This document shows positions 2 through 43,977 of a stretch of DNA of 64,000 nt, piece after piece. The DNA comes from a bacterium. Lineage in GTDB: Bacteria > CSSED10-310. Each line of letters starts with the position of its first letter. The stretch's first letter is position 1. Where the stretch lies: contig JBASEY010000033.1 in the NCBI GenBank assembly GCA_049652745.1, positions 20,159 through 84,158 of the forward strand, read 5' to 3'. A program made the position numbers and the translations under genes. The notes under the pieces were generated by a model. That model worked only from the letters and a program-made list of their open reading frames with translations. It was not told the origin of the DNA and did no database searches.

Positions 2-1780
2 GAACTGCTCGAGGCGGGAATGCAGAAGGATATTCGGCCGCTGGGTCGGTCGTCGCGCGGTCATGGAAGCGTGGCGGCGTACGATAACTCAAACCCGACG
101 CAATATTATTACGGCCCCGAAGAAGCCAATGTGCTGTATGCCGATGACATGCAACTGGCCGTAGCGGGAGGGGGATTGATGACAGCCTATGAGATCGGAT
201 TTTATACGGATGCGTCGGCTTCCTATCCGGTCACGGTCACCGCAAGGTTGTATAACGGGGCTCCCGACGGCGGAGGCACGGAGATTTCGGGCACGGCGAA
301 ATCCTGGACGATAACCGAGACCGGTTCCAATGCGTGGCTTTTAGTAAATGAACTGACTACGCCGATCACTATTCCGGAAACAGTCTATCTGGTCGTGTCG
401 TCGAACAGAGTAAATACCGGATGGATGGTATCTGGGCAAGCCAATTTAGGTTATACCGACGATTCATTTTGCCAAAAAATAAAGATTTGGATTTTCGAGT
501 TGTGGAGTTGTGGTCTAAGTTTCGAAGATGACGTTTGGGCCGGCTTCTATGCGACGATTTACCTCGATATGGAGCTCGATCCATGTGTGGAGTGTCCTCC
601 GGAAGGTGTTTTGGAGGGAGAGCCGCCTTGTGGAACGGGTTACGTCGACACCTATAACGGCGGCTGCAATAGTTCACCGGCGGTATTTCAACCGATTGCC
701 AACGGCGACATCATTTGCGGCCAGACCGGGACTTACGCGTTTGGTTCCGGCACCCATCGCGATACAGATTGGTTTGTGTTCACGTTGGCGGAAACCTCCA
801 TGGTCGAATGGCAGGCGTACGGCGAAGCTCCGATACAAGTCGCTTTGATCAAGCCTGGACTGGCGATTCCCGACGGATGTGCCGACCTGGAGGTCTTGGC
901 CGGCGCAATTTCCTATTACTGCGAACCGGCTCAGGTCCAATACTTATTGGATCCAGGAACATACTGGGCTTATGTGTCGATCAAATCAGGTTCCATTGGC
1001 TATCCTTGTGAAATTCCCTATGTCGCTGCGCTCAATTGGGGACCTGCGGCGTCGGAGACATGTGGTGCAGGAAGCATTTTTTCCCAACCTTTCGCCGGTG
1101 AAGTAGTCTACGTCAACTCAGATAACAATGCCGCCATATTGGCCGCTGATGATTTTTCCGGCGTGACAGCACCGATCAAGGTAGTGGAATGGTGGGGCGG
1201 CAACCTGAATAACAGCCCCAGTTGGCACGCCTGTTCCAAGCCCAACACGAATTTTGTCATCACATTTTACCAACCGGGCACGCTGCCGGGCTCTGTGGCA
1301 CGCCAGGAAACGGTGACGGCCACCCGTAGCGCCACCGGTCAGTACATATTCGGGAATGAAGGCTATGGATATAGTTATAAATACAGAGCTGAACTCGCCA
1401 CACCGCTCTCCTTATCCGCGGGCTGGATATCCATCGCTGCGGTCGACAGCGGAAGATGCTGGTTTATGTGGGGTGATGCCGGAGAGCCGCCGGCCAACGG
1501 CAGCCCTTACGTTCAAAACACGGGTAGTGGATGGGCGATAAGTACGGAACCGGATCAACACGTCGATCTGGCGTTCTGCTTGCTCGAAGAAGTCGTGATT
1601 CCAACGGAAACGCCTATTCCACCGACTGAAACGCCGATTCCGCCGACAAATACGCCGATCTCTCCGACAGAAACACCGGTACCTCCGCCCATTCCGTCCA
1701 CATCGCCTACCGGTCTATTTTTTGCATTGCTGGCGATCGGCATATTAATCGTATTGCCGGTATTGAGAAAAACGGTTTAA
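2..1780 (+). CDS. Secreted Cys-rich PPC-like surface protein, paralog A. It is 5'-partial because the frame is open to the window edge. The C-terminus is a Pro/Thr linker followed by a TM-anchor-like tail.
   Basis: Frame 2 is open from nt 2. One ~155-aa module has the Cys-rich motif CVECPPEG...CG..YVDTYNGGCNS...ICGQTG followed by RDTDWFVF...GTYWAYV (PPC-like D.DW[FY].F). The VEWWGGNLNNSP...NFVITFYQPG domain is shared with the paralog at 2368. The tail is (PTETPIP)x4-STSPTG-LFFALLAIGILIVLPVL-RKTV. Confidence 0.8.
   Translation, partial: ELLEAGMQKDIRPLGRSSRGHGSVAAYDNSNPTQYYYGPEEANVLYADDMQLAVAGGGLMTAYEIGFYTDASASYPVTVTARLYNGAPDGGGTEISGTAKSWTITETGSNAWLLVNELTTPITIPETVYLVVSSNRVNTGWMVSGQANLGYTDDSFCQKIKIWIFELWSCGLSFEDDVWAGFYATIYLDMELDPCVECPPEGVLEGEPPCGTGYVDTYNGGCNSSPAVFQPIANGDIICGQTGTYAFGSGTHRDTDWFVFTLAETSMVEWQAYGEAPIQVALIKPGLAIPDGCADLEVLAGAISYYCEPAQVQYLLDPGTYWAYVSIKSGSIGYPCEIPYVAALNWGPAASETCGAGSIFSQPFAGEVVYVNSDNNAAILAADDFSGVTAPIKVVEWWGGNLNNSPSWHACSKPNTNFVITFYQPGTLPGSVARQETVTATRSATGQYIFGNEGYGYSYKYRAELATPLSLSAGWISIAAVDSGRCWFMWGDAGEPPANGSPYVQNTGSGWAISTEPDQHVDLAFCLLEEVVIPTETPIPPTETPIPPTNTPISPTETPVPPPIPSTSPTGLFFALLAIGILIVLPVLRKTV
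1601..1684 (+). repeat. In-frame tandem repeat of four 21-nt units encoding (P-T-E/N-T-P-I-P/S)x4. It forms the linker before the C-terminal anchor of paralog A.
   Basis: Units ccaacggaaacgcctattcca, ccgactgaaacgccgattccg, ccgacaaatacgccgatctct and ccgacagaaacaccggtacct are directly visible. Confidence 0.8.
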
Positions 1781-1899
1781 GGGGTGAGCTTTATTTTGAA
1801 GACGGCGAGTGTTCGTGGTTTTTCAAAACACTTAAAAAGACTGTGGCGTTTGGGTTAACGGCAAGCTTCACCCGCAGACACTGACAATGTGTTATTTTT

Positions 1900-1938
1900 C
1901 CGCGGTGTGATATCGATGTCGCACTGCGGCTCTTTTTA
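1900..1938 (+). terminator. Candidate intrinsic terminator downstream of paralog A.
   Basis: Imperfect inverted repeat ccgcggtg...cactgcgg (7 of 8 bp), followed by the T-rich ctcttttta. It lies about 120 nt after the stop codon. Confidence 0.35.
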
Positions 1939-2079
1939 CGGGAACCATCTATGAAAAGGCAGACATTCAGAGAAATAAAAATTTCTTTTCGAACCTTTTT
2001 ATATCATTATAGGCAAACACTTTCACTTTGAAGATTTACCCCCAGACATCTGATCGATCGATTATTTTTTTTGCGCCGC

Positions 2080-2108
2080 TTGACAAATTCATTTTCTTCT
2101 GTTAGTAA
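2080..2108 (+). promoter_or_regulatory. Candidate sigma-70 promoter for the paralog B transcript.
   Basis: TTGACA at 2080-2085, a 17-nt spacer, then TAGTAA at 2103-2108. Confidence 0.35.
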
Positions 2109-2246
2109 TTATTATTGCTGTCAACAAACTCTACTGTGGTGTTGCGGTGTTGTATTTAGGGGATAAGTGTGAAGGGGGATGGTGATTTAATCACATGCTG
2201 GTGAATGCATTGACGCCACGGGCAATAGTCTCTACAGAGCAAATTC

Positions 2247-2290
2247 CGGTCTCCGCCGGAAGGGTGTATCCGGTATGGAGACCGTTTTTT
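2247..2290 (+). terminator. GC-rich hairpin plus U6 tract in the 5' leader of paralog B. It is a candidate attenuator or sRNA 3' end.
   Basis: cggtctcc at 2247-2254 pairs with ggagaccg at 2277-2284. An inner ccgga/tccgg pairing sits between them. tttttt follows at 2285-2290, 78 nt upstream of the ATG at 2368. Confidence 0.45.
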
Positions 2291-2367
2291 ATGTCTATAG
2301 CTCATGAAACAGGACTTGTTTCATTGAACTCAACAAACCGTGTAATGCGGAAGGGAGGAATTTTTCT

Positions 2368-4743
2368 ATGAAGAAAATGTTAATGTTAGGTTTTATCGTG
2401 CTGATTTTCTGTAGTTATGTCGCTGCGGAAACCGGCCAACTCAGCGCGAATACGCGCATAATTCAGCTCAATAGGATCGAAAAGAATATATTGAGCCCGC
2501 AGGTTTCTTCCGGCGATTGCAGTTCGGCATCGAGCTATCTTGCCAAATCAGACACGATCATCGAGAACCTGAGCCTGAACAAAATGGACTCGCCAATCAG
2601 CGCCGAGACAAAGCTGGATGCCCAGGTAATTCAGGAGCGGAACAGCCGTCAAAACTGTCCTGGTCTTCTGGCCTACAGCAATACTGACATCGAAGGTTAT
2701 TTTCCACCTGCGAACAACGTGAGCATAGCGGATGACATTATTTTGAATGTTGCGGGCGGAGGAGATCTGGTTTGCTATGAAATCGCATTTGCTTATGGAG
2801 CTTTCGTAGCCCCCCAAGTCAACGTCAACGCAGCCTTATACAATGGTCGTCCGGATCAGGGCGGGCAGTTGATTCCCGGCACCGAAGCAACGTGGGTGTT
2901 TGATTCCAGTGTTGAAGTGGGATATTATTACACCCTTACTGCAGAACTGGCAACGCCGGTTGCTATCCCGGAAATCGTTTTTCTTGTGATGAGTAAAAAC
3001 GCCGGTGGTAATGACAATGGATTTGCAGTTGCCGGAGCGGCGGAAATTGGGTATACGAACGATTGGTTTTGCATGCAAAATCCCGGCTGGATATGCGGCT
3101 ATTATTTCGGCGGCGACCCCTGGGCCGGATTTTTTGCAGAGTTGTATCTGGATATAGACCTGGAACCCTGTGTGACGTGTCCTCCCGGTGGGATCTTGGA
3201 AGCTGAACCGGCTTGCGGACCGGATTACGTGGATACCTACAATGGCGGTTGCAACAGTAACCCACCGGTTTTTCAGGCCATTTCCAGCGGGAACGTCATC
3301 TGTGGTCAGACCGGAGTGTTCGAAAACAGCGACTCGACCATTTCTCGTGATACCGATTGGTTCTCATTCACACTTGGCGAAGCCATGCTGGTCGAATGGG
3401 AAGTTTACGGTGAAGCTCCAATGCTTGCCGCAATTGCCAAACCGGGATCTGCCGGATGTGATGACTTTGAAGTTCTGGCCCTCGACACCGCAAATTATTG
3501 TGAAACTGTTTATCTTAGCGAAGTGTTGCCTGCGGGAACATACTGGGTTATCGCAATGGTCGATAATTTCTCAACATATTGGGAATGTGAAATTCCCTAT
3601 ATTGCATCGTTCAACACTATCAGCCTGACCCCGTGTGTGAGTTGTCCTCCCGGCGGTATTCCTGAAGGCGAACCTCCTTGCGGACCAAATTATAATGATA
3701 CGTTCAACGGCGGTTGCAACAGCACCCCATCCGTATTCCGACCTATTAGCAACAACAACGTCATCTGCGGCCAGACCGGTGTGTTCGATTATTCCGGAGA
3801 CACCTATCGTGATACCGATTGGTTTGTGTTCCAAGTCACTGAATACAGCTTGGTGGAATGGGAAGCCTACGGTGAAGCTCCAATGATGGTTGCTCTGATC
3901 GATCCGGGAGTAGCCATGCCCGATGGCTGCGCCGACATGTCGATTTTGGGTGTCGGCGTGTCACAGTACTGCGAAACCGCGACGATCAAACGCCTGGTGG
4001 AACCTGGCACGTATTGGGCTTTCGTATCGCTTGATACATTTAATGAATTCTTTGCTTGCGAGATTCCATATGTTGCTACGATTCACTGGGAACCTGCCGA
4101 TCCTGAAGACTGCGGTCCGGATACCATTTTCCCGCAGCCCTTTGCGGCGGAGGTCGTCTATGTCAATTCCGATGCCAATTCCGGTATCATCGTAGCGGAT
4201 GATTTTTCAGGTCTGACAGAGGCGATCACTGCGGTGGAGTGGTGGGGCGGCAACCTGAATAACAGCCCAACCTGGCATGGATGCACCAAACCCAATTCGA
4301 ATTTTGTCATCACCTTTTATCAGCCCGGAGCAGTTCCCGGGGCCGTCGTTTATCAGAAAACCGTCACAGCAGTTAAAACCCAGACCCTTCAGTTTGTATT
4401 TGGTAACACAGCTTACGGTCCTGTGATGAAATACAGAGCCGAGTTGCCGTCATCTGTCAGCATTCCCGCCGGGTGGATTTCCATTCAAGCTGTTGACAGC
4501 GGGACTTGCTGGTTCATGTGGGCTGATTCCGGAGCGCCGCCTGCCTCCGGCAGCGCTTTCGTTAGAGACTCAGGCTCAGGTTGGGAACTCGACGCGGAGC
4601 CAGATAATCAAGTTGATCTCGCTTTTTGCCTGATCGGCGGTGAACCACAACCCATTCCTGCCACATCACCCGTTGGTATCAGCATAGCATTGCTTGTCAT
4701 TGGAATTATGATCGCTCTGCCGATGCTGAGAAAATCTCTGTAA
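2368..4743 (+). CDS. Secreted Cys-rich PPC-like surface protein, paralog B. It has a signal peptide, two tandem ~155-aa modules, the conserved C-terminal domain and a TM-anchor-like tail.
   Basis: A GGGAGG RBS precedes an N-terminal MKKMLMLGFIVLIFCSYVAAETG. Two modules each carry C..CPPGG...CGP.Y.DT.NGGCNS...ICGQTGVF plus RDTDWF.F. The C-terminal domain resembles paralog A. The tail is SPVG-ISIALLVIGIMIALPML-RKSL. Confidence 0.85.
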   Translation: MKKMLMLGFIVLIFCSYVAAETGQLSANTRIIQLNRIEKNILSPQVSSGDCSSASSYLAKSDTIIENLSLNKMDSPISAETKLDAQVIQERNSRQNCPGLLAYSNTDIEGYFPPANNVSIADDIILNVAGGGDLVCYEIAFAYGAFVAPQVNVNAALYNGRPDQGGQLIPGTEATWVFDSSVEVGYYYTLTAELATPVAIPEIVFLVMSKNAGGNDNGFAVAGAAEIGYTNDWFCMQNPGWICGYYFGGDPWAGFFAELYLDIDLEPCVTCPPGGILEAEPACGPDYVDTYNGGCNSNPPVFQAISSGNVICGQTGVFENSDSTISRDTDWFSFTLGEAMLVEWEVYGEAPMLAAIAKPGSAGCDDFEVLALDTANYCETVYLSEVLPAGTYWVIAMVDNFSTYWECEIPYIASFNTISLTPCVSCPPGGIPEGEPPCGPNYNDTFNGGCNSTPSVFRPISNNNVICGQTGVFDYSGDTYRDTDWFVFQVTEYSLVEWEAYGEAPMMVALIDPGVAMPDGCADMSILGVGVSQYCETATIKRLVEPGTYWAFVSLDTFNEFFACEIPYVATIHWEPADPEDCGPDTIFPQPFAAEVVYVNSDANSGIIVADDFSGLTEAITAVEWWGGNLNNSPTWHGCTKPNSNFVITFYQPGAVPGAVVYQKTVTAVKTQTLQFVFGNTAYGPVMKYRAELPSSVSIPAGWISIQAVDSGTCWFMWADSGAPPASGSAFVRDSGSGWELDAEPDNQVDLAFCLIGGEPQPIPATSPVGISIALLVIGIMIALPMLRKSL
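3160..4089 (+). repeat. Two tandem 465-nt intragenic modules (3160-3624 and 3625-4089). A third copy lies in paralog A at about 575-1039.
   Basis: The protein-level repeats LEPCVTCPPGG...ASFN and LTPCVSCPPGG...ATIH are in register. At the nucleotide level they have diverged. Confidence 0.6.
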
Positions 4744-4801: not shown

Positions 4802-4816
4802 AAAAGGAGAATGACA

Positions 4817-6862
4817 ATGAAAAGCCTGTTTCGATATTCGATACTGTCGGTGCTGATTTTCAGCCTTTCCCCTATCTATGCTCAGACTTGGGTCGAGGTT
4901 ACCGATAAGTTGGGGCTGACCGGCACACCGTCCTTTCGGATTTCGATCGTCGATCTGAACGGGGACGACTATCCCGACTTAGTGGTTCATGACGCCGTCG
5001 ATCATGCAAATTGGGATGTCATGAACAAAATGTATGTTTATTTGAATGTGGAAGGCGATACATCAGGCACTCGCAAGTTCATCGATTTCACTGAAGAATC
5101 CGGTATTCGTGCCAACAGGCGCGGGACTAAAGACGGCCGTCACTCCGACCTGGCTATTTTCGGTGATATCAATAACGACGGTTATCCGGACTATTTTGCA
5201 GGCGTGTATTACCATCGTCATACGTTCATACCCGAAAATATCGAATGGCTCGATACCAGCGAAGTTTTCTTGAATGACGGCACTGGCCGCTTCACGTTGG
5301 TTCCGGATACGCTCTTCTTCGACGGTGGTCTGACCAATGTTTCAAGCGCAGTTTTCGCTGATTTTGACCGTGACGGCAACCTGGACCTATTAGTCGGCAA
5401 TTGGTTCACCAAATATTTCGGCGGAACCGGCGACGTGTTCGCTCCAGATCAACTTTTCCGTGGCAACGGTGACGGAACGTTTCAAGACATGTCGGGAACA
5501 TCTGGCATACAGAACCCGGAAGTTCTCCAGCCGACTTACGGCGCTGCCGTCGCCGATGTCGATGAGGACGGATATCCGGATATTTTCCTCGGCAATTACT
5601 GTCGAGACAAATCGAAACACCTTCGAAACAACGGCGATTGGACCTTTACTGAAATTCATGAAACGTCGAATTACGGTCAATATGTCGGTCCCGGCAACTG
5701 CGCCTCCCACACCTGTTCATGGGGTTCCATGCCGCGGGATTTCAACAATGATGGTCATATCGACCTGTTCACGATCCTTGTTCACGGCTGTAGAAAAGTG
5801 ATGTCGGCGCCTTTGATCAACGATGGCACCGGCGTTTTCACCTGGGATTTCGATTGTATCAAAAGCCGCCTGGACGATGATCCGGCCAAACTGCACCATG
5901 GCGATCATTTTGCGACCTGGGTTGACTGGAACAACGACGGACTTGTCGATTTGATCCTGTCTGAAAACGGTTATGACAACAACCGGTTTTATATTTTTCG
6001 CCATGAACCGGATCACACACTCCAAGTCATTACACCGTCAACAGCGATGAGTGTTTTGAATACGGAAAATGTCTCGGTTCATAATGTTTCCGTTTTTGAT
6101 TTCGACCTGGACGGCGACGATGACATCATCATCGGCTCCGGTGACGGCGGACCTCTCCGAGTCTTCAGGAATGATATCGGGAACGCCAAAAATCATTTGA
6201 CGGCTACACTGGTCGGGGCCGGCAAACCAGGATTCAGCAACACATCGGCTATCGGCGCCAAAATTCAAGTGACCTACGGCGACACTACAATCACCCGCGT
6301 CGTGCGAGCCGGCGACGGCCATTTCGGCCCTCAAGTCCCGTTCAGACTGAATGTCGGTTTGGATACCGCCGCGCAGGCTGACCTGGTCACAATCACCTGG
6401 CCTAATCTTAGCCAGGATGTCTACAAGCTCAAAAAAATACCCGCCAATTCGCACATACGAATTTATGAGAATCCCGATCCGATTAAAAACGCGTCCGGCA
6501 CACGCCTATTCATCCCCACCGCTCATGTAACGCCAGGGGACCGCTTCAGCGTTTGGAGCTATTTATACAACAATTCCACACAAACCATGAAAAAGATTCC
6601 TTTTATGGCTGTCTTGGAAGTCGCGGGTATGTATTGGTTCTGGAACACCTGGTCGGAAGATGTCGGATATGATATTGTCGATGTCGACCCAGGCGTGACC
6701 ATGATAAACATACTGCCGGAATTTCAGTGGCCGGATACCGGAGACGGATCATTTGACGGCATCAGGTTTTACGCTGCCATGCTGAACGACTCGATGGACG
6801 ATATCATCGGCGGTTTTGACGGTTTGGGCTTCGCGGAATTTGGTTACGGCCCGAAAAAATAA
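4817..6862 (+). CDS. CRTAC1-family secreted protein with FG-GAP beta-propeller repeats and an ASPIC/UnbV domain.
   Basis: A signal peptide MKSLFRYSILSVLIFSLSPIYAQT follows an AGGAG RBS, spaced for the ATG at 4817. FG-GAP loops include DLNGDDYPDLVV, FDRDGNLDLLVGNW, DVDEDGYPDIFLGNY, FNNDGHIDLF, WNNDGLVDLIL and FDLDGDDDIIIGSG. The UnbV-like segment is AIGAKIQVTYGD...HFGPQ...VTITWPN. Confidence 0.8.
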   Translation: MKSLFRYSILSVLIFSLSPIYAQTWVEVTDKLGLTGTPSFRISIVDLNGDDYPDLVVHDAVDHANWDVMNKMYVYLNVEGDTSGTRKFIDFTEESGIRANRRGTKDGRHSDLAIFGDINNDGYPDYFAGVYYHRHTFIPENIEWLDTSEVFLNDGTGRFTLVPDTLFFDGGLTNVSSAVFADFDRDGNLDLLVGNWFTKYFGGTGDVFAPDQLFRGNGDGTFQDMSGTSGIQNPEVLQPTYGAAVADVDEDGYPDIFLGNYCRDKSKHLRNNGDWTFTEIHETSNYGQYVGPGNCASHTCSWGSMPRDFNNDGHIDLFTILVHGCRKVMSAPLINDGTGVFTWDFDCIKSRLDDDPAKLHHGDHFATWVDWNNDGLVDLILSENGYDNNRFYIFRHEPDHTLQVITPSTAMSVLNTENVSVHNVSVFDFDLDGDDDIIIGSGDGGPLRVFRNDIGNAKNHLTATLVGAGKPGFSNTSAIGAKIQVTYGDTTITRVVRAGDGHFGPQVPFRLNVGLDTAAQADLVTITWPNLSQDVYKLKKIPANSHIRIYENPDPIKNASGTRLFIPTAHVTPGDRFSVWSYLYNNSTQTMKKIPFMAVLEVAGMYWFWNTWSEDVGYDIVDVDPGVTMINILPEFQWPDTGDGSFDGIRFYAAMLNDSMDDIIGGFDGLGFAEFGYGPKK

Positions 6863-6954: not shown

Positions 6955-8640
6955 ATGAAACGTTTTATATTTGTTACGATTATTTTCGCTTTGTCATCTT
7001 CTTCGGTGAGTTTCGCGCTGTTTCCTCGTGCTGAATTTCCGAAACCGTTGAACCCGGTAATCCGCGATTGTGATCGCTGGGATCTTCTGGTTGTCAAATT
7101 TCGTGAAAACACGGGGATTCGCCTTCGAAACGCGGATTTTGTATCGAAAAACAATGTCGATTTGACTGCGCTTTTTGAGCTTTTATCGTCTTATCCTGAA
7201 GTCAGATATGAACGATTATTTCGTCGTCCGGAGTATGTCTATGAAAATGAGAAACGCACTGGAGAACGACGAGTAGGACGTCAATTAGCGGATTTGAATC
7301 TGTATTTCGCTTTCGGACCTCCGGACAGGGAAACCGCGGAACGGTTATTAGTTGATTTAAACGCCTTGGAAATCGTGGAATGTGTTTACCCCGAGCCGAT
7401 TCCTCAGCTTGCTTTCATGCCCTCGGCCGGAAAGCGTGTTTTGCCGCCTTCGTATGTCCAGTATCAGGGCTACCTGAACGCTTCCCCGGTCGGTGTCGAT
7501 GTCGCCGCAGCACGCTCTTATCCAGGGGGTCGTGGAGAAAATGTCCGGATGATCGATGTTGAGCTGGCTTGGCGGTGGACACATATCGATCTGCCGACAC
7601 CTTTTTATCAAGGCGGTGTTCCATCGCAATTAGTGGACTACCGTCATCATGGAACAGCCGTGATGGGGATTATAACCGGTGTTGAAAACACCTATGGTAT
7701 AACAGGGATAGCTCCGTTAACCGAGGTCGGTGGTCAAGCGATAAATGAAGGTGACTGGCCTGAAAATGTCGGAACTTACTTTGACACAGCTTCCGCCGCC
7801 CTTGAACCGGGAGATATCTGGCTGATCGAATTGCATGGTCCTGGCCCTGCTGGTGATTACATACCAATGGAGTGGTGGCAGGCAAATTATGATGCGATCG
7901 CCAACTCCACCGCTCAAGGACGCATCTGCGTCGAAGCCGGCGGTAACGGCTCGGCAAATCTGGACGATTCCATCTACCAGGGCAAATTCAATCGATCCAC
8001 CAGGGATTCTTTAGCCATCATGGTCGCAGCCGGAACACCCTACAACATGAATCCTGAGTGGTTCACGAATTACGGGTCACGCATGGATGCAAACGGTTGG
8101 GGTTCCGCAATCTATACTACCGGCTACGGTGACCTTTATTCAGCAGGAGGCGAAGATTACTATTATACTTCTGATTTCGGCGGGACATCGGGAGCATCTC
8201 CGATCGTGGTAGGGGTTTGCTGCCTCGCCCAGTCCATTTACAAAGAGCTGACCGGAGGTGAAATACTGGACCCGGCCACTCTGCGAGCCGCCATTACAGA
8301 AACCGGCGCTCCCCAACCAAGCCCCGCCACCCAGTATATCGGTCCTCGTCCGAATCTGGCGGAATTATTGCTTCACGATATTTTCCAGCTCGAACCGACG
8401 CCGACACCCGTCCCAAGTAATACCCCGACGCCCGACTGTATCAATGACGGCGATGTCAATTTTGACGGCATCATATCCACTGCTGACGCGCAATTGACGT
8501 TCCTCATCGCAATCGGTCAATACTCCCCGACCTATCTTGAGGAATGTGCTGCAGACTGCAACGGCGACGGCTTGGTCACATCAGAAGATGCACAACTGGT
8601 TTTCTTGACAAGTTTAGGCACCGCAACCTGTGTGGATTAG
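6955..8640 (+). CDS. Secreted subtilisin-like (S8-type) serine peptidase with a C-terminal Pro/Thr linker and a tandem dockerin-like module.
   Basis: A signal peptide is present. The motifs are in D/H/S order: Asp in IDVE, His in HGTAVMGI, then AGGNGS and Ser in GTSGASP. The linker is PTPTPVPSNTPTPD. Two Ca-loop-plus-helix repeats follow: DVNFDGIISTADAQLTFL and DCNGDGLVTSEDAQLVFL (D.N.DG.....D). Confidence 0.7.
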   Translation: MKRFIFVTIIFALSSSSVSFALFPRAEFPKPLNPVIRDCDRWDLLVVKFRENTGIRLRNADFVSKNNVDLTALFELLSSYPEVRYERLFRRPEYVYENEKRTGERRVGRQLADLNLYFAFGPPDRETAERLLVDLNALEIVECVYPEPIPQLAFMPSAGKRVLPPSYVQYQGYLNASPVGVDVAAARSYPGGRGENVRMIDVELAWRWTHIDLPTPFYQGGVPSQLVDYRHHGTAVMGIITGVENTYGITGIAPLTEVGGQAINEGDWPENVGTYFDTASAALEPGDIWLIELHGPGPAGDYIPMEWWQANYDAIANSTAQGRICVEAGGNGSANLDDSIYQGKFNRSTRDSLAIMVAAGTPYNMNPEWFTNYGSRMDANGWGSAIYTTGYGDLYSAGGEDYYYTSDFGGTSGASPIVVGVCCLAQSIYKELTGGEILDPATLRAAITETGAPQPSPATQYIGPRPNLAELLLHDIFQLEPTPTPVPSNTPTPDCINDGDVNFDGIISTADAQLTFLIAIGQYSPTYLEECAADCNGDGLVTSEDAQLVFLTSLGTATCVD

Positions 8641-15906: not shown

Positions 15907-15973
15907 CGGTGTATCCTCCTTCACGCTTGTTTGATATCGACTATCATTCTAAACTATCGATTAAAGGGTGTGG

Positions 15974-15986
15974 GACCTGACAGGTC
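15974..15986. promoter_or_regulatory. Perfect 13-nt palindrome in the divergent larC/kinase intergenic region. It is a candidate operator.
   Basis: GACCTG-a-CAGGTC is seen directly. Confidence 0.25.
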
Positions 15987-16024
15987 TCCGCAGCCCCAGA
16001 ATATCGGAAGCTCGGGTAAACGCA

Positions 16025-19000
16025 ATGACAAAAATTCGGTTGATGGTTTTCCTGATTATAACGCCGCTGGTTTCATCGATCGGCTTCGGCTCCGATTTTT
16101 CAACTCCCCGACCCACCGCTTCAATCACAAATCCATCGACGGAAAACCCGTTATCCGTCTTTTTGGAATCACTGGACAGGTTTATTCCGTTTGTTCATGA
16201 CCAATTGCACGATCTCCCTTCATCCGATGAAAAGCAACTGTTTGAAAACCTTGCATCGCTTCAAAAGCAAATCGATCGGGAAACAGCGAAACAGTCTCTG
16301 CCTTCGATAGCTGGAACTGCGCTTTTTACTGAAACCGGTGCCTGGTCGGCCTGGTCCGGCGTCATCGAGGATCTACCCGGAAACTGGATGGAATACATTG
16401 CAACCTCAGAATCCGGAGCCGGTATCGTCGTTTTATATGAAACTCCGGCAAAGGCCATCATTGTTCATCTGACCAAAGGCGACTATCGAATAGCGATGAC
16501 CCAGATAATTCTGATCGATCGATCGATTGATGGAATCCAACCGGATGGGATGATGATACAGGGTAAACATAACCATTACTTGTTCAGATATTTATCACCT
16601 TTTGACAGATTACCCGGCGTGATGCCATTGAGTTCAAATTTGAGTGAATCCATTTTACCGGATATTTTGCTTCCCATTGAAGATATCGCCGCTAAACAAT
16701 CATTTTTTGGAAATGAATGTTTGCCTGAATGGTTACGTCCATTATTCGATCCGCATTTTTTTGCTGGAAATTTTCTCGGCCTTCATTCTGCCGGCATGCT
16801 GCTTGTTGCCGGGCTGATCGCTTGGAGCTTGACCCATCGCCTTGTCACATTTCAACCCAATCGTCATCGAAAAAAACTTTTAGTGGTTTTTACGGCCTTT
16901 TCATCATTAGCAACCATCTTTTTTGTTTCTCGATTGGCACACTCACTCATCTCCGATACCTCCTTTGCATGGTGGCCGGAGTTTCCTATCGAATACAGCC
17001 TGGCTACTCTTGCACTTCCGCTTTCAGCTCTTTTATTGGCCGGAGCCTGGATGCGCTGGATTTTTTTCCTGTTATTATCGCTTATTCAGTCACGATCAAG
17101 ATCAGACTCTCCATTCAAAAAGCATCATATACCCGGTTGGTTATGCCAAATATCCGCGATTGCCTTGCTGTCTCCCTATTTAATCTCGCTAAGCGGCGCA
17201 ACGATTCGACAGAATATCTCCAGCCGCCTTCAGAACTGGATCAATGAACGCGAGCGCCTGCTGCCGCTTGCTTTGGAAAACAACCTGGACATTCTCTCAG
17301 CAGATGAAATGCTCTATCATTGGGAAGACGGCGCTCCCTTTTCGAATACGGCATTTCATCTTTGGCGCAAAAGTGACCTTCACGTGTTCGAAGCGGATTT
17401 CGCTGTTCAGATACTCGATGAAAACGGAGTCATTCTGCAACAATTTTCTCCGTTTTTCACTCCGGATACGTTACATCCTGAAATTTTAGACCAGTCATTG
17501 GCGGTTGACACAGGCCGCTTAATCATTCCGCCGCGGCTTCATCACCATTCGATACACTCGCCTTTGATAGGAATTACCGCTGTCGAAACAGACGATGACA
17601 TGTTTGTTTATCTCGTCATACAGATAGCCATGGAGCCCGGCGCAATAAAACCTCCCCCCCATCGATGGGGCGACGCTATCACTGTTCATGTTGCTCGGCG
17701 TGAAGATTCATCTGAATTGCACCGAGACATACCCGCCGTTTTACAGGCGGAATGGTTTGAACATCCGCCTTCGGAACCCAAATGGATCGATGATGAGTCC
17801 GGACGTTTTCAGGCGCTGCTTTTTAGGTTGCCTTATTCCGACCCGACGCAGCCAGAAATTCTGGTCGGCCTGCTTCCCCGCATTTCTTTCGAATCCCATC
17901 TGGCCGGCATCGCTAGGCTCGCTTTATTATCCATGTGTCTTTTGATGCCCGGTTTAGCTTATTTTGAAATCAAACATATCGTTCGTTCCCGAAAAGAAAA
18001 AACCTATGGGTCTTTCACACGCCAATTGCTGGGCGCTTTCCTGTTGCCGGTGATCGCCTTGCCATTGATTTTTGCGGTCACTCTTCATCGCGTTATCGAT
18101 GATTCTGAAACCGAATTCCAAAAGGAACAAATGGCACAAATGCTTCAACAAACCCTTATGCAATTGAAAGAGCATACCATTGAACAGGCGAAAATCCTTC
18201 GTTCGAACGTCGAACACCACTTTTTCAATGAATATGATCCGGATTTTTCTGGTGTAATGGGTGGCACTTGGTTGGTTCTGGATGAATTCGGTCGGGAGAC
18301 AATGTCCGGTGCAACTCCTTCGATTCACGATCTACCATTGGAAACGATCAGCCGGGTCTTTCAAGAAACCTATTATCGAGGTCGTGCTGCAGATGAGATT
18401 GTCTTTCAATCCAGATCTCCCGGCGAGCTTACCGCTCAGGTGATTCTGGCATTTCCCCAATTTCCCGCCATGAATTCGAACGACGAAGTTTTCCAGGGCA
18501 CTTTTGTATGTGAAATACCTATTACCGATGACGCTTGTCGCTCACTCGATGAATTTTCAGATTCACTGATTGCAATATACTCACAAGGTTCGATTTCGGC
18601 CTCAAACAGACCGGAATTGTTCCAAACCGGCTTGATATCGAACCGCCTCGATGCATCTTTGTACCGGTCACTGGTTTTTCAAAAGAGAGATACACTCTTG
18701 AAATTCGATAGAACGCATGGTCAGTATTCCGTTACCGGCGCATTTTATTCAGAATTCAGCCATGTCATTGGCGCTGCAACCATGTCTTTCACACGATTTC
18801 CTTTTACAGCTCAGCATTCGAAAGCCAATGAATGGCTTTTTCCGACGACACTATTTCTGCTCGTTTCGGGAATACTCTTTTCGCTTTATTTCGGGCGACG
18901 GATTGCTCGTCCGGTCAAAGCGCTGACAGAGAGCGCCCTGGAGGTTTCAAAAGGCAATTTCAACGTTATCGTTCCGGAACATGGCGCCGGGGAAATCCGG

Positions 19001-20134
19001 TTGTTGACCCGCACATTCAACATCATGACGCGTGATCTCGAGGTTCAGCGGATCGATCTGCAAGAGCGCTATACCTTTATCAACGCCTTGCTGGCGAGGA
19101 TGTCATCAGCTATTTTGGCTGTAGACAATACCGGTAACATTTTGACTTGGAACGAGGCTTTCCAAAATCTCTTTCCAACATCCGGCATAGATGGAGAAAA
19201 TCACAAAATTGACAGAGTTTTCATGGATATTGGGATTCCTGAACTGAAAATGATTTTCGATGGCTACGTTTCCGGATCGGTCGAAGATCGACATGTTTTT
19301 CGTTTTTTCAGGGAAGGTCGAATAGTTCATTTAGCGGTCACGTTTGCCAAATTGCAGTTCCCCGGCAGGTTGACAGGGATTTTGATCGTCATGGACGATA
19401 TCACTGATACCGTACAATCATCAAAGCTCCAGGCATACAGTGAAATGGCCAGACGCATCGCTCATGAAGTCAAAAATCCCTTGACACCCATTCAATTGTC
19501 CATCGAACATCTTCGTCAGGCATGGGAGGACGGCGCCGCCGATTTTCCGGCTATATTCAATCAATGCCTTTCAATGGTTCTGGAGGAAGTGAGAAGTCTT
19601 GAACGGATTTCGACGGAGTTCAGTCGGTTTGCACGTTTTCCCAAGCCGTCTTTTCAATTGGATGATATGCGGCATGTCATCAATGAGGTGGCGGCAATGT
19701 ATCCGGCAGCCTTGACCGGTACGACTTTTCAGGTGGATCTGCCTGATGACCCGCTTCTTTGCCGCTATGACCACGATCAGATCAAACGCGTTTTAATCAA
19801 CCTTGTCCAAAATGCACTTCAAGCAATGGACAACAAGGGTGTTCTCAAGCTGAAAGGCAGTCGCGACGGCAATTGGATCAAAATCGAGATCGTTGATACC
19901 GGACCGGGTATGGATAAAGAGACGTTGATGAACCTTTTTGAACCATATTTCAGCACGAAAAAAGAGGGGGCCGGATTAGGCCTTGTCATCACCAAAGCCG
20001 TAATCGAGGCACATGAAGGGATTATCCAGGTACAAAGCGCGCCAGGGGAAGGCACAAGTTTCATTTTTCGCTTGGCGGCCGCGGATTCAATAACTCCCAT
20101 CAGGGAAGAAAAAGGTGGGTTCAATGCAGAGTAA
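16025..20134 (+). CDS. Large multi-pass sensor histidine kinase, NtrY-like, with HAMP, PAS, HisKA and HATPase domains.
   Basis: There are three clusters of TM helices. A HAMP-like segment follows the last TM (RRIARPVKALTE). The H-box is HEVKNPLTPIQLSIEHLRQ. The ATP lid is GAGLGLVITKAVIEAHEGIIQVQSAPGEGTSF. The start is uncertain, between the GTG at 15968 and the ATG at 16025. Confidence 0.8.
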   Translation: MTKIRLMVFLIITPLVSSIGFGSDFSTPRPTASITNPSTENPLSVFLESLDRFIPFVHDQLHDLPSSDEKQLFENLASLQKQIDRETAKQSLPSIAGTALFTETGAWSAWSGVIEDLPGNWMEYIATSESGAGIVVLYETPAKAIIVHLTKGDYRIAMTQIILIDRSIDGIQPDGMMIQGKHNHYLFRYLSPFDRLPGVMPLSSNLSESILPDILLPIEDIAAKQSFFGNECLPEWLRPLFDPHFFAGNFLGLHSAGMLLVAGLIAWSLTHRLVTFQPNRHRKKLLVVFTAFSSLATIFFVSRLAHSLISDTSFAWWPEFPIEYSLATLALPLSALLLAGAWMRWIFFLLLSLIQSRSRSDSPFKKHHIPGWLCQISAIALLSPYLISLSGATIRQNISSRLQNWINERERLLPLALENNLDILSADEMLYHWEDGAPFSNTAFHLWRKSDLHVFEADFAVQILDENGVILQQFSPFFTPDTLHPEILDQSLAVDTGRLIIPPRLHHHSIHSPLIGITAVETDDDMFVYLVIQIAMEPGAIKPPPHRWGDAITVHVARREDSSELHRDIPAVLQAEWFEHPPSEPKWIDDESGRFQALLFRLPYSDPTQPEILVGLLPRISFESHLAGIARLALLSMCLLMPGLAYFEIKHIVRSRKEKTYGSFTRQLLGAFLLPVIALPLIFAVTLHRVIDDSETEFQKEQMAQMLQQTLMQLKEHTIEQAKILRSNVEHHFFNEYDPDFSGVMGGTWLVLDEFGRETMSGATPSIHDLPLETISRVFQETYYRGRAADEIVFQSRSPGELTAQVILAFPQFPAMNSNDEVFQGTFVCEIPITDDACRSLDEFSDSLIAIYSQGSISASNRPELFQTGLISNRLDASLYRSLVFQKRDTLLKFDRTHGQYSVTGAFYSEFSHVIGAATMSFTRFPFTAQHSKANEWLFPTTLFLLVSGILFSLYFGRRIARPVKALTESALEVSKGNFNVIVPEHGAGEIRLLTRTFNIMTRDLEVQRIDLQERYTFINALLARMSSAILAVDNTGNILTWNEAFQNLFPTSGIDGENHKIDRVFMDIGIPELKMIFDGYVSGSVEDRHVFRFFREGRIVHLAVTFAKLQFPGRLTGILIVMDDITDTVQSSKLQAYSEMARRIAHEVKNPLTPIQLSIEHLRQAWEDGAADFPAIFNQCLSMVLEEVRSLERISTEFSRFARFPKPSFQLDDMRHVINEVAAMYPAALTGTTFQVDLPDDPLLCRYDHDQIKRVLINLVQNALQAMDNKGVLKLKGSRDGNWIKIEIVDTGPGMDKETLMNLFEPYFSTKKEGAGLGLVITKAVIEAHEGIIQVQSAPGEGTSFIFRLAAADSITPIREEKGGFNAE

Positions 20135-21494
20135 ATTGATACTTGTAATCGACGACGAAGTGGGTATTCGGCGCAGCCTGCGAATGATTTTGGAGTATTC
20201 AGGATATGCTGTCGAAGAAGCCGCCGATGGAGAATCAGGTCTTTTTGCGGCACGAAAACATAGACCGGACTGTGTTCTATTGGATATAAAGATGCCGGGG
20301 ATGGACGGCCTGGAGGTTTTGGAGATATTGATGCAGGATTATCCGAGCCTACCGGTCATCATTTTGTCGGGCCACGGCACAATTGAAACGGCCGTCAAGG
20401 CCACTCGAACAGGCGCTTTCGATTTTCTTGAAAAACCCCCTAAAAAAGACCGTATTTTATTGGCTGTCAGAAACGCTTTGAATATAGGCAATCTGGAAGC
20501 CCGCGTCAAAGCCGCCGACGGCGATATGGCCGAAACGGTTATTGTAGGTGAGTCGAAAGCTATTCGAGCCGTCATGGAAATGGTCGAACGTGTCGCCCCG
20601 TCTCCCCTTCCAGTTCTGATCCAAGGTGAAAGCGGCACCGGGAAAGAATTGATCGCTCGGGCAATTCATGAAAAATCTCTACGACGCCAAGGGCCTTATA
20701 TCCAGGTCAATTGTGCGGCAATTCCGGAAGACCTTATCGAAAATGAGCTTTTCGGACATGAGAAAGGCGCGTTTACCGGCGCTGGAGAACGTCGAATCGG
20801 CAAATTTGAAAAGGCGCATCAAGGGACTATTTTTCTGGATGAAATCGGAGATATGTCGTTGAAAACACAGGCCAAGGTTTTGCGTGCCCTTCAAGAAGGC
20901 GAATATCAACGTGTCGGAGGCAACAGAACGCTTCATTCGGATGTTCGCGTCATCGCCGCCACCAACCAAAACTTGGAAGCGTTGATACAAGAAGGCGCGT
21001 TTCGGGAAGACCTGTTCCATCGAATAAACGGTATCCCAATCAGGGTTCCAGCTCTACGTGAACGAACGGAAGATATCCCGCTTTTAGTCAAATACTTTGC
21101 GGAACGATTTATACTGGCCAATGGAATCCGTGCGCCGGGCTATTCCAAAGACGCCGTCGAATGGCTCAAGAAACAACCCTGGAAAGGAAATATAAGAGAA
21201 TTGAAAAATTTCGTCGAGCGCCATCTTATCCTGTGTACAGAAAATCAAATCGATGCCGCCTACCTGAGTCGTTTAAATGAAAGCTCCGAGATAAATCCAG
21301 GTCCACCCGACGGATTCGCTCCCCATCGGCATGCATCTTTACAAGATTTCAAGGAAGCTGCAGAAAAAACGTTTTTGATCCAAAAACTTCAGGAACACAA
21401 TTGGAATGTCAAAGCGACAGCCGAAGCGATCGGCACACCCCGCTCGAATTTATATAAAAGAATGCAGTATTTCGGGATTGAACGATCGAGTTAA
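20124..21494 (+). CDS. Sigma-54-dependent response regulator, NtrC/NtrX-like, with REC, AAA+ and Fis-type HTH domains.
   Basis: REC segment ILVIDDEVGIR...LLDIKMPGMDG. Walker A is GESGTGKELIARAIH. ESELFGHEKGAFTGA is the GAFTGA sigma-54 contact. A C-terminal HTH is present. The gene overlaps the end of the kinase gene. Confidence 0.85.
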   Translation: MQSKLILVIDDEVGIRRSLRMILEYSGYAVEEAADGESGLFAARKHRPDCVLLDIKMPGMDGLEVLEILMQDYPSLPVIILSGHGTIETAVKATRTGAFDFLEKPPKKDRILLAVRNALNIGNLEARVKAADGDMAETVIVGESKAIRAVMEMVERVAPSPLPVLIQGESGTGKELIARAIHEKSLRRQGPYIQVNCAAIPEDLIENELFGHEKGAFTGAGERRIGKFEKAHQGTIFLDEIGDMSLKTQAKVLRALQEGEYQRVGGNRTLHSDVRVIAATNQNLEALIQEGAFREDLFHRINGIPIRVPALRERTEDIPLLVKYFAERFILANGIRAPGYSKDAVEWLKKQPWKGNIRELKNFVERHLILCTENQIDAAYLSRLNESSEINPGPPDGFAPHRHASLQDFKEAAEKTFLIQKLQEHNWNVKATAEAIGTPRSNLYKRMQYFGIERSS

Positions 21495-33472: not shown

Positions 33473-34603
33473 TCATTTATAGGCTTTTTCAACGCCGGAT
33501 TTCTGCCACAAATCGATATAGAAATTTTCAGTCCGGCGAACCATTTCCTCCATTGAAAAAGATTGCGCGATCCGGAGAGATTCCCGGCCCATTCGAAGGC
33601 GGGTTTCCGGATTGTTCACGATTGTTCTCAAAGCTTCGATAAAAGCTTTGCTGTCCGACGGTGGTACCAATAGCCCGTTTATTTCATGCCGTATGGCTTC
33701 AGGATTGCCCCCGACAGCAGTTGTGACAATAGGCAGGCCACATGCCATGGCCTCGATCAAAGCATTTGAAAAACCTTCTTTTAAGGATGGCATAACAAAT
33801 ATATCCAAAGCCCGATAAAAATCACGCGTATCATTCGTGAATCCAAGCAGATGAAAAAAATCCAAAGCGCCGACACTTTGCGCATACTCGAGTAATTCTT
33901 GTCTCAAAGGTCCATCTCCGGCAATATAAAAATGTACTCCCGCATTTTGAAAATCCGGATCTGCCGCAGCTTCAACTAGAACGTGAAGAGCCTTGATCGG
34001 CATTAAGCGCGCGGCACATCCCACTTTCAGATTCCCGTCGAAAATGGGAGTGTCATCGTCTTTACCGGGACAAAAAAATCGAGTGTCCACTCCGTTATAG
34101 ATAACCTTTTGGCGCGATTCCGGCAATGAAATCCGCTCGATATAATTCTGTCTGACGCTTTCGGATACAAATACCGTACAGTGCCTAAACCTACTGACAA
34201 TTCGGTCTGTAAAAATCTGGCCGGCATCATCCCAGCCTTCAATAGTATGTATGTTAGCGACAATGACAGGTGTTCCTGCTATCTTTGCCGCAACAGTTCC
34301 AGAAATATTCGCCCGGTACATATGTGTATGAACAATATCAATTTTTTGCTCTTTGAGATATTTTCCAAGCTTCCACAAGCCCTTCGGCGACCAACGGGAA
34401 GAAATCGGTTTTTCAATAACCGGAATGCCTTTTTGAACAAGCTCCGGGGCTAGTTCACCAGCAGATTTCAAGCAAACAACCCTGGCTTCGAAACGCGATT
34501 TATCCAATAACGGCAACAGCGTTGTAAGTTTTTTTTCTACCCCTCCCGGCCACAGACCGCTGATAATCCTTGCTACTTTTAAAGGTCTATTGGGCTCTTT
34601 CAT
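33473..34603 (-). CDS. Glycosyltransferase family 4.
   Basis: The GT4 C-terminal motif is EGFSNALIEAMACGLPIVTTAVGGNPE. Confidence 0.8.
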   Translation of the reverse strand: MKEPNRPLKVARIISGLWPGGVEKKLTTLLPLLDKSRFEARVVCLKSAGELAPELVQKGIPVIEKPISSRWSPKGLWKLGKYLKEQKIDIVHTHMYRANISGTVAAKIAGTPVIVANIHTIEGWDDAGQIFTDRIVSRFRHCTVFVSESVRQNYIERISLPESRQKVIYNGVDTRFFCPGKDDDTPIFDGNLKVGCAARLMPIKALHVLVEAAADPDFQNAGVHFYIAGDGPLRQELLEYAQSVGALDFFHLLGFTNDTRDFYRALDIFVMPSLKEGFSNALIEAMACGLPIVTTAVGGNPEAIRHEINGLLVPPSDSKAFIEALRTIVNNPETRLRMGRESLRIAQSFSMEEMVRRTENFYIDLWQKSGVEKAYK

Positions 34604-34604
34604 A

Positions 34605-35726
34605 TCAATTCGATGTGCCCTCTGTTCCGCTCAGCAAGTTTTCATACACAGCCGCTGTCTTGCGAACCGTTTCGCGTATATCGAACACGGTTTCGACACG
34701 TTTCCGACCTGCTTTACCCATGATAAGCCGTTGCTCGGAACTATCGATCAAATCGGCGATTTTTTCCGCCATTGCAGATGGATTCCGGATCGGTGTAAGC
34801 CAGCCGGTCACGCCGTCGACAACAACCTCTGGAATTCCGCCGGCACGTGTCGCAACAACAGGTTTCGCCATGGCCATGGCATCCAGAATAGACGTGCAAA
34901 GACCCTCCATTTTTGAACTCATACAGAAAATATCACTTGCAGCAAGTATATGTTTGATATCGTTTCGAAATCCAAGCATCAGAAATCGATCTTTTAGAGG
35001 CGACTTGTGGACAGCGTTCTGCAGATCGTTCCAGAGTTCACCGGCTCCGATTAAAAGAAAAACCGCTTGCGGATATCTATCAGCAAGTAGCTCGGATGCT
35101 CTGAAAAAAGTCAAAGGGTCTTTGTGTGGAGCCAAAGCGGCAACCATGGTCACCAGCACTTTTTCGAAGTCCAAGCCCAGTTCGGAACGCACTGCTTTAC
35201 CTTTGTCATCAGGCTCGAAGGCTCTGACATCGATTCCGCTGTAAATCGTTTCAACCTTGTCGGATGGAACTCCGTCGGCAATTAGAATATTTTTTATGGC
35301 ATTGGAGACAGCTAAAATTTTGTCGGCTCCGATAAGATATTTTTTCACAGAAAAATTCATGAAACGTGTTTTCAGCGGAAAATCCGTTCTTTTTGAGTAA
35401 ACCACTTTTAAAGGGCGCCTACAAAAGAATTTGGCTAATGCGGCGGAAATCAGGCCGTGTGAAGTATGTACATGAAAAATATCAGCGCCATAGGTACGGG
35501 CGCCTTTCCAGAGGTCCTGAAACTGCCGAAAAGAAATCTCGCCTGTCGATCTGAGTATAATAGCAGGGATTTCCATCGAACGGACTTTATCCATCAGGGC
35601 GCTTTTCAGCGGCGCTGCGACGATAGACCGAACACCATGCTCAGAGAGGTGGCGAACAAGATGAAACACCTGCCCTTCGCCCCCTCGCCAGGTGCGTTCG
35701 GTATTGACATGGACGACAGTTATCAT
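34605..35726 (-). CDS. Glycosyltransferase family 4.
   Basis: EGLCTSILDAMAMAKPVVATRAGGIPEVV. The stop abuts the start of the next GT4 gene (TGATATG). Confidence 0.8.
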   Translation of the reverse strand: MITVVHVNTERTWRGGEGQVFHLVRHLSEHGVRSIVAAPLKSALMDKVRSMEIPAIILRSTGEISFRQFQDLWKGARTYGADIFHVHTSHGLISAALAKFFCRRPLKVVYSKRTDFPLKTRFMNFSVKKYLIGADKILAVSNAIKNILIADGVPSDKVETIYSGIDVRAFEPDDKGKAVRSELGLDFEKVLVTMVAALAPHKDPLTFFRASELLADRYPQAVFLLIGAGELWNDLQNAVHKSPLKDRFLMLGFRNDIKHILAASDIFCMSSKMEGLCTSILDAMAMAKPVVATRAGGIPEVVVDGVTGWLTPIRNPSAMAEKIADLIDSSEQRLIMGKAGRKRVETVFDIRETVRKTAAVYENLLSGTEGTSN

Positions 35727-35926
35727 TTGCCGCTGTTTTTGCCGGAATCTATCGAAACAGCTTCATCGATCATCATGACAGGAATATCGTCGATTATCGG
35801 GTATACCAATCGACAAGCATAACAAACCAAACCATCTTTCTTTTCCGTCAGTTCCAATTCGCCTTTACAGGCGGGACACACCAGAATGTCAAGCAGTTCT
35901 TTATCTATTGCCATGTAAACCTCCAT
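35723..35926 (-). CDS. ycaR: Trm112/YcaR-family small zinc-ribbon protein (UPF0434).
   Basis: LLDILVCPACKGEL...GLVCYACRLVYPIIDDIPVMMIDEA. Confidence 0.7.
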   Translation of the reverse strand: MEVYMAIDKELLDILVCPACKGELELTEKKDGLVCYACRLVYPIIDDIPVMMIDEAVSIDSGKNSGK

Positions 35927-36866: not shown

Positions 36867-36868
36867 GT

Positions 36869-37915: not shown

Positions 37916-37973
37916 TAAAAAATCGGCTGTTAGTCTGGGAATCGAGTATTCGGCGCCAGTCAATCTTAATGTT

Positions 37974-43652: not shown

Positions 43653-43725
43653 GGGCCATTAGCTCAACTGGCAGAGCAGCGGACTCTTAATCCGAAGGTT
43701 GAAGGTTCGATTCCTTCATGGCCCA
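43653..43725 (+). tRNA. tRNA-Lys (anticodon CUU).
   Basis: Manual fold. The acceptor gggccat pairs with atggccc. The D-stem is gctc/gagc. The anticodon loop is cuCUUaa. The T-arm is gaagg-TTCGATT-ccttc. The discriminator is A and no CCA is encoded. Confidence 0.85.
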
Positions 43726-43977
43726 TAAAGCTGAAATAAATGGCAACAAGCTTTCTGTAAACCCGAATCGATTACTGAAAAATATAAACTCGATTAATCT
43801 TGTACAAGACACAAAATCGGTTAGTGGACTTGATATTTTTGATTCAAGTATCGCAATAATGCAATAAACAACGTGCTTCTTTTTTTACGTACAGGCAAAA
43901 TCATTGACAGATCGGCTTCAAAAAAGATAGAATTAAAGCTGATTAGCGTGTTTTTTTTGGAAAAAGGAGAATGTGTA

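Follow-up and report, generated by a model that had tools for sequence, protein, structure and literature searches.

The 64-kb window analyzed here (64,000 nucleotides of contig JBASEY010000033.1 from assembly GCA_049652745.1, an uncultured, sediment-type bacterium of the CSSED10-310 lineage) opens with two tandem genes, which we call paralogs A and B. They code for proteins of one shared architecture, in which an N-terminal domain is followed by one or two cysteine-rich modules, a C-terminal domain, and a short hydrophobic tail, and some relatives of these proteins carry other anchoring elements in place of the tail. The open reading frame (ORF) of A is in frame from base 2, ends at a stop codon at 1778–1780, and gives 592 aa inside the window; the left window edge cuts the ORF so that its N-terminus lies outside, and P0005, a full-length A homolog on a related contig (656 aa, 98 to 99% identical), has a signal peptide. 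The similarity between A and B is far beyond chance: BLASTP aligns their C-terminal 410 aa at 56% identity (E 7e-169) and their N-terminal 336 aa at 48% identity (E 4e-91). The alignments are displaced from each other by the length of exactly one module, which means two modules in B against one in A, and the orthologs agree; a reading of the sequence alone (hereafter, the sequence-only reading) had already described the two genes as tandem paralogs differing in module number, and both points stand. We mapped the domains by cutting B into segments and searching each against the 120 listed B homologs; A follows the same order, with its single module and with a Pro/Thr-rich linker before the tail. 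The 587-bp spacer between the genes contains a terminator-like hairpin and, before B, a strong Shine-Dalgarno sequence; an Rfam scan of the whole window returned one tRNA only, with no match in the spacer. In full-length A and B, no domain of Pfam or NCBIfam, catalytic or otherwise, scores above cut-off, and NCBIfam has no match to either protein, to the modules, or to the N-domain family.

Every module in A and B is 155 to 158 aa long and has eight cysteines at identical positions (6, 9, 21, 33, 50, 104, 118, and 147), both in the window proteins and in close relatives, as is expected for an extracytoplasmic protein. The module profile matches all 120 listed homologs, with one to nine copies per protein. 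In an alignment of 40 diverse modules, E18, C21, G32, C33, D65, D67, C104, and C147 are invariant, the further cysteines are near-invariant, D27 and N30 are nearly invariant, and position 16 is usually acidic or Asn. The motifs first quoted for these proteins (CG..Y.DT.NGGCNS, RDTDWF, GTYW, VEWWGGNLNNSP, and CWFMW) are all present, and the cysteine-rich character of the modules is confirmed by the eight fixed positions.

The sequence-only reading had divided each ~155-aa module into a Cys-rich subdomain and a PPC-like beta-sandwich. The module as a unit and its PPC-like nature hold up well. The whole homologs P0009, P0010, and P0051 pass the Pfam PPC model (35 to 43 bits against a cut-off of 25.9), the matched stretch falling inside the module at about positions 65 to 130, and the best, albeit weak, matches of the module profile among PDB sequences are the collagenase collagen-binding domains (CBDs) 5sv5, 4hpk, and 1nqd (E 0.075 to 0.56); on these two grounds we place the modules in the PPC fold. 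The beta-sandwich is also superimposable on solved collagenase CBD/PPC domains. Among single family modules, three of 40 match PPC (best E 0.0045), and B module 2 searched alone gives no PPC match at E <= 0.1. The separate Cys-rich subdomain does not survive: the stretch is best read, going by its motifs, as the N-terminal arm of the PPC domain with a disulfide-type loop. The arm sequence E-G-E-P-x-C-(11 residues)-C-N-S resembles the usual PPC arm E-x-E-P-N-[DN] with a Cys-bounded loop inserted, and R-D-T-D-W-[FY] corresponds to the PPC D-x-D-x-Y strand.

The conserved C-terminal domain had been put at ~215 aa and described as not placeable in any family. Its conservation is clear, but its size resolves into a ~182-aa domain and a 34-aa tail, separated in A by the Pro/Thr-rich linker, and it can be placed, as a borderline member of DUF7901 (PF25470), a Pfam domain that is itself uncharacterized so far. 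Searched on its own, the C-domain of B reaches 27.4 bits (cut-off 24) over profile positions 20 to 202 of 205, and 9 of 32 related C-domains match DUF7901 (best E 1.1e-12); within the full-length sequences it drops under the cut-off, to 21.3 bits in B and 16.1 bits in A. A literature search found no paper mentioning DUF7901. The domain is mobile: among 30 homologs it is placed N-terminally, centrally, or toward the C-terminus, and at times it is duplicated. Its profile matches no PDB sequence at E <= 1. In the structural model it is a jelly-roll, similar in fold to solved carbohydrate-binding modules (CBMs) and lectin-like domains, with phage tail and baseplate domains, the Cwp84 lectin-like domain, and CBMs as its nearest solved folds. 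These neighbors (scores in parentheses) are a phage phi812 baseplate chain, 9euf_0, which may be the phage 812 tripod protein (11.9); the PBCV-1 capsid protein, 8h2i (11.6); the mycobacteriophage Bxb1 tail spike gp29, 9d93 (11.3); the Clostridioides difficile surface protein Cwp84, 4ci7 (9.0); PHR domains (about 7 to 8); and many CBMs and discoidin domains (6 to 7). In phage 812, the leg domain of the tripod protein resembles the lectin-like Cwp84 domain, and for the CBM-like domains next to it, attachment to glycans of the cell wall has been proposed (PMC13433997).

At the other end of the proteins, the region first described by its AVAGGG sequence is indeed there, but it is a folded domain of ~167 aa, and its modeled fold, a jelly-roll, belongs to one class with that of the C-domain. 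With a profile built from 10 N-domain sequences, 1.84 billion proteins yield 538 cluster representatives at E <= 1e-3, 378 of them at E <= 1e-10. The domain often occurs twice per protein, as tandem pairs, and often together with dockerins; just four of 145 fetched matches (P0121–P0265) also contain the module or the C-domain. The region has no Pfam match in 10 members and no NCBIfam match in eight. Two profile-profile comparisons gave probabilities of 13% and 2%, by which homology is not established, although in the second alignment the shared motifs (A-D-D, F-x-[IV]-x-[FL]-Y, and that of the last strand) line up. We suggest that the N-domain represents a widespread jelly-roll family lacking a Pfam-A or NCBIfam model, and thus a candidate new domain entry.

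Both proteins finish in the hydrophobic, anchor-like end that was first noted for them, with [IV]P.[ST]SP.G followed by ~19 hydrophobic residues and RK: A ends PPPIPSTSPTG-LFFALLAIGILIVLPVL-RKTV and B ends PQPIPATSPVG-ISIALLVIGIMIALPML-RKSL. The more general pattern is P-x-[IV]P-x-[ST]-x-P-x-G, then a ~19-residue hydrophobic (transmembrane, TM) helix, then R-K, 34 aa in all in B. The same tail occurs on five more family members, whose other domains are ~30 to 50% identical to those of B, and an eighth case was also seen; P12, P14, P18, G20, R38, and K39 are invariant across seven tails. It thus has the tripartite layout of a sorting signal, with a signature motif, a TM helix, and a basic C-terminal cluster. 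Within the window only A and B carry it, and we have seen it solely on members of the A/B protein family. Some other family members have a different C-terminal element at this position, such as a type IX secretion system (T9SS) C-terminal domain (for example, P0020 and P0044) or a dockerin (P0008, P0010, and many planctomycete proteins), and in a third paralog, described below, a ~130-aa domain replaces the tail.

The difference in module number is old. Modules at orthologous positions are 68 to 73% identical and paralogous modules 53 to 62%, so that the difference is conserved between species. We rejected a recent duplication or an assembly artefact as its source, given the 53 to 62% identity between modules and the two-module layout kept in the B ortholog of another genome. 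A separate variation is seen in P0003, the ortholog in a CSSED10-310 metagenome-assembled genome (MAG; L005 1285–4110), where a ~200-aa insert at residues ~412 to 620, beginning PPANDNCEDAE, lies between the two modules.

The window is chromosomal, with genes for RecA, AlaRS, FtsK, MutS, PGK, SmpB, and CTP synthase, and its lipopolysaccharide (LPS) biosynthesis genes indicate a diderm host. Two secreted proteins are encoded directly downstream of B (Table 1), and the arrangement of A/B with the FG-GAP/ASPIC gene is kept in two other contigs, L001 and L004. In L004 the paralogs are followed by the FG-GAP gene; the L001 array has three paralogs (844, 656, and 791 aa), then the FG-GAP/ASPIC protein, then the S8 protease. 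Two adjacent genes, as first described, is correct for the window, but in the related contig L001 a further member of the array, the third paralog P0006 (844 aa, L001 4419–6953), lies upstream of the position that matches the left window edge. P0006 has the same N-domain, module, and C-domain, and instead of the tail a long Pro/Thr linker and the ~130-aa C-terminal domain, which has no family assignment and is homologous to the C-terminus of the FG-GAP/ASPIC protein (window 6461–6859; BLASTP E 2e-12, tblastn E 8e-11). The S8 peptidase is a separate protein two genes downstream, there being no peptidase domain within A or B, and its dockerin closely resembles those at the ends of P0008, a close homolog, and of many N-domain proteins.

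Scanning the module alignment against one genome per GTDB species gave at least 523 confirmed stretches. Among the matches listed, the closest are at 72% identity in binchicken_co39_363, an uncultured bacterium in which synteny is kept, and at 63% in a MAG of candidate division CSSED10-310; the others are mainly from MAGs of Zixibacteria, Planctomycetota/Phycisphaerae, Eisenbacteria, Ignavibacteria, Bacteroidales, Cloacimonadota, and Calditrichota.

Elsewhere in the window, a second large secreted-type FG-GAP protein, of 1703 aa with FG-GAP repeats and a Big_5 domain (43873–48984), is encoded just after the tRNA gene (43653–43725) and the LPS cluster. A 1388-aa HAMP/HisKA/HATPase sensor kinase, with an N-terminal region of ~970 aa that has no Pfam match, is followed by a sigma-54 activator response regulator (15968–21494), and a 473-aa ORF on the reverse strand (62557–63981) has no Pfam match at E <= 1e-4.

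Table 1. Paralogs A and B, their parts, and annotated neighbors, in window coordinates.
Feature	Residues (aa)	Position (nt)	Strand	Remarks
Paralog A	592 in window	2..1780	+	ORF cut by left window edge
A N-terminal domain, predicted jelly-roll	21–189 of window translation	62..568	+	jackhmmer coordinates, tblastn
A single Cys-stapled PPC module	190–347	569..1042	+	
A C-terminal domain, DUF7901-like, predicted jelly-roll	348–529	1043..1588	+	
A Pro/Thr-rich linker PTETPIPPTETPIPPTNTPISPTETPVPPP		1589..1690	+	Between C-domain and tail; read from sequence
A C-terminal tail		1691..1777	+	IPSTSPTG, hydrophobic helix, RKTV
A-B spacer hairpin		1900..1929	+	Terminator-like, 13 pairs then T-run; consensus match only
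Shine-Dalgarno-like AAGGGAGGA		2351..2359	+	8 nt 5' of B ATG
Paralog B	791	2368..4743	+	Complete
B signal peptide MKKMLMLGFIVLIFCSYVAAET	1–22	2368..2433	+	Sec-type; read from sequence
B low-complexity linker	23–95			
B N-terminal domain, predicted jelly-roll	96–262	2653..3153	+	No Pfam or NCBIfam family
B module 1	263–417	3154..3618	+	PPC/CBD fold with Cys-rich N-terminal arm
B module 2	418–575	3619..4092	+	
B C-terminal domain, DUF7901-like, predicted jelly-roll	576–757	4093..4638	+	
B tail GEPQPIPATSPVG	758–791	4639..4740	+	Followed by hydrophobic helix and RKSL
FG-GAP/UnbV_ASPIC protein		4811..6862	+	Secreted; neighbor of B
S8 subtilase		6955..8640	+	Secreted; C-terminal type I dockerin (23.2 bits, just over cut-off)
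Lipid A/LPS core cluster		33473–43558	-	LpxB, KdtA, LpxK, lauroyl acyltransferase, heptosyltransferase, DUF3108, epimerase, two GT4 glycosyltransferases

Taking these features together, we propose, with confidence a little better than even, that A and B are exported, noncatalytic, disulfide-rich binding proteins of an adhesin- or lectin-like kind, held at the cell envelope of a CSSED10-310-related diderm. We infer a surface or secreted location from the signal peptide, the many cysteines, the C-terminal anchor, and the relatives with T9SS C-terminal domains or dockerins, which indicate that other family members use secretion or surface-attachment signals; the adjoining genes also encode secreted proteins, in an order that is kept in two other genomes. 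The architecture, the folds, and the exchange of anchors among relatives follow from the analyses above; surface exposure, Ca2+ binding, disulfide pairing, and ligand binding are all predictions here. Each protein would form a chain with a lectin-like jelly-roll at each end and, between them, one or two PPC modules of the collagenase CBD type. After export by the Sec pathway, oxidative folding would form four disulfides per module, and the E-x-E-P...N-S arm and R-D-T-D strand of each module may bind Ca2+, stiffening the chain as in ColG. Wilson et al., writing in 2003, are said to have found that the arm and D-x-D elements of ColG bind Ca2+ and order the inter-domain linker, and the module residues are, going by the likeness of the motifs, putative equivalents of the ColG ligands in 1NQD. 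The tail would then tether the chain, by simple anchoring in the membrane or once a sorting enzyme had processed it, so that the terminal jelly-rolls, and possibly the PPC modules, could bind an extracellular polymer or surface, whether glycan or protein. The differences in module number and linker length between the paralogs could give them different reach or specificity.

A role tied more closely to the neighboring genes is compatible with this proposal and not exclusive of it. A and B could be substrate-capturing or scaffolding partners of the dockerin-bearing S8 subtilase and the FG-GAP/ASPIC protein, in an extracellular polymer-degrading locus whose PPC modules sit on separate polypeptides. 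The conserved order in L001 (paralogs, FG-GAP/ASPIC, S8 protease) and in L004 (paralogs, then FG-GAP) fits such a partnership, as do the dockerin that P0008 has in common with the protease, the C-terminal domain that the third paralog has in common with the FG-GAP protein, and the typical occurrence of PPC domains as appendages of secreted proteases (Pfam PF04151 description). The terminator-like hairpin between A and B speaks against it, however, and no cohesin or other dockerin receptor was identified, although a cohesin partner was not specifically looked for; we consider the partnership unlikely as a full account of the two genes.

Several results weigh against our proposal of envelope-held binding proteins. 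The window modules themselves fall below the Pfam PPC cut-off of 25.9 bits, A and B giving no PPC match at E <= 1, and the presumed Ca2+ ligands were assigned by resemblance of motifs and not by structural alignment. Foldseek finds nothing for the C-domain at E <= 1e-3, the best match being Bxb1 gp29 at E 0.026; since there is no significant solved relative, "lectin-like" here denotes a generic jelly-roll similarity. The tail raises a further difficulty: the window tails match no NCBIfam sorting-domain model at E <= 10, a sorting enzyme was not found in the 64-kb window, and an ordinary TM helix at the C-terminus would, in a diderm, keep the protein in the periplasm, attached to the inner membrane and not exposed at the surface. 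The tails of the relatives fare little better, at 11 to 15 bits against model cut-offs of 16 to 22, and no sorting enzyme lies within 10 kb of the tail-bearing relatives P0024 and P0011.

These properties of the tail, together with its ~19-residue helix followed by R-K and the diderm host, are what would be expected if A and B were inner-membrane-anchored periplasmic proteins, with the tail as a stop-transfer TM anchor, its R-K cytoplasmic, and a function within the envelope, such as a part in its structure or in the handling of polymers. Yet P-x-[IV]P-x-[ST]-x-P-x-G is kept just before the helix while other parts of the proteins have diverged to 30 to 50% identity, which is the pattern of a recognition signal, and the T9SS C-terminal domains or dockerins that relatives have in the tail position target proteins outside the outer membrane; a periplasmic role is for these reasons distinctly improbable in our view. 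The same conservation leads us to suggest, very tentatively and as something we would sooner doubt than expect, that the tail is an undescribed sorting signal of CSSED10-310 and a few neighboring uncultured lineages, cleaved and processed by an exosortase-, archaeosortase-, or rhombosortase-like enzyme. Finally, structural surface-layer or coat proteins whose domains self-assemble instead of binding an external ligand would also consist of beta-sandwich domains only, be Cys-rich, and perhaps depend on Ca2+, and similar jelly-rolls occur in viral capsid and baseplate proteins, but there is no similarity to known S-layer families in Pfam or NCBIfam, and variable module number and domain shuffling over hundreds of architectures are more typical of adhesins and binding proteins than of lattice formers, making this very unlikely.

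For the envelope-held binding proteins that we favor, no confident full-length match to a characterized family emerged from Pfam, NCBIfam, or PDB profile searches. The parts are nonetheless mostly recognizable, as a PPC fold, a Pfam DUF, and generic jelly-rolls, and hundreds of relatives are annotated as hypothetical proteins. Three things lack a description so far: the Cys-stapled form of PPC, as a subfamily that can be defined; the N-domain family without a model; and the tail motif. If our reading is true, it reveals a way of making surface binding proteins in uncultured lineages of anaerobic sediments and digesters, CSSED10-310, Zixibacteria, Phycisphaerae, and Eisenbacteria among them, in which a limited set of parts is put together: PPC modules stapled by disulfides, jelly-rolls of two families, and anchors that can be exchanged. 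Should the tail be a new sorting signal, the family would have three kinds of anchor to choose from, the other two being the T9SS C-terminal domain and the dockerin. The gains are modest, amounting to a subfamily of Cys-stapled PPC modules that occurs more than 500 times in GTDB species genomes, an N-domain family so far without Pfam or NCBIfam coverage, and a candidate sorting tail, and they have no bearing on any long-standing open question.

Compared with known systems, the tail shares its tripartite layout of Pro signature, hydrophobic helix, and basic end with PEP-CTERM/exosortase, IPTL-CTERM, MYXO-CTERM, VPXXXP-CTERM/archaeosortase, and LPXTG/sortase; it differs from the PEP-CTERM, IPTL-CTERM, MYXO-CTERM, VPDSG-CTERM, and LPXTG signals in falling under every model cut-off, and we found no enzyme to go with it in the window or in the 10-kb surroundings of P0024 and P0011. 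The jelly-rolls are 8 to 16% identical in sequence to the Cwp84 lectin-like domain (4ci7), the phage jelly-rolls (9euf and 9d93), and CBM6/32/35/36. For the modules, the closest comparison is with the CBDs of Hathewaya (Clostridium) histolytica ColG and ColH (s3a/s3b and s3; PPC, PF04151), a PPC subclass with Ca2+-dependent linker ordering (PMC4356367). In contrast to the collagenases, the A and B polypeptides have no protease catalytic domain; sequence identity to the CBDs is just ~15%, with the window modules under the Pfam threshold, and collagen is an unlikely ligand in this habitat. The A/B modules are further set apart from the ColG and ColH CBDs by an extra Cys-bounded loop of ~12 residues in the arm (C21...C33) and by their eight conserved cysteines.

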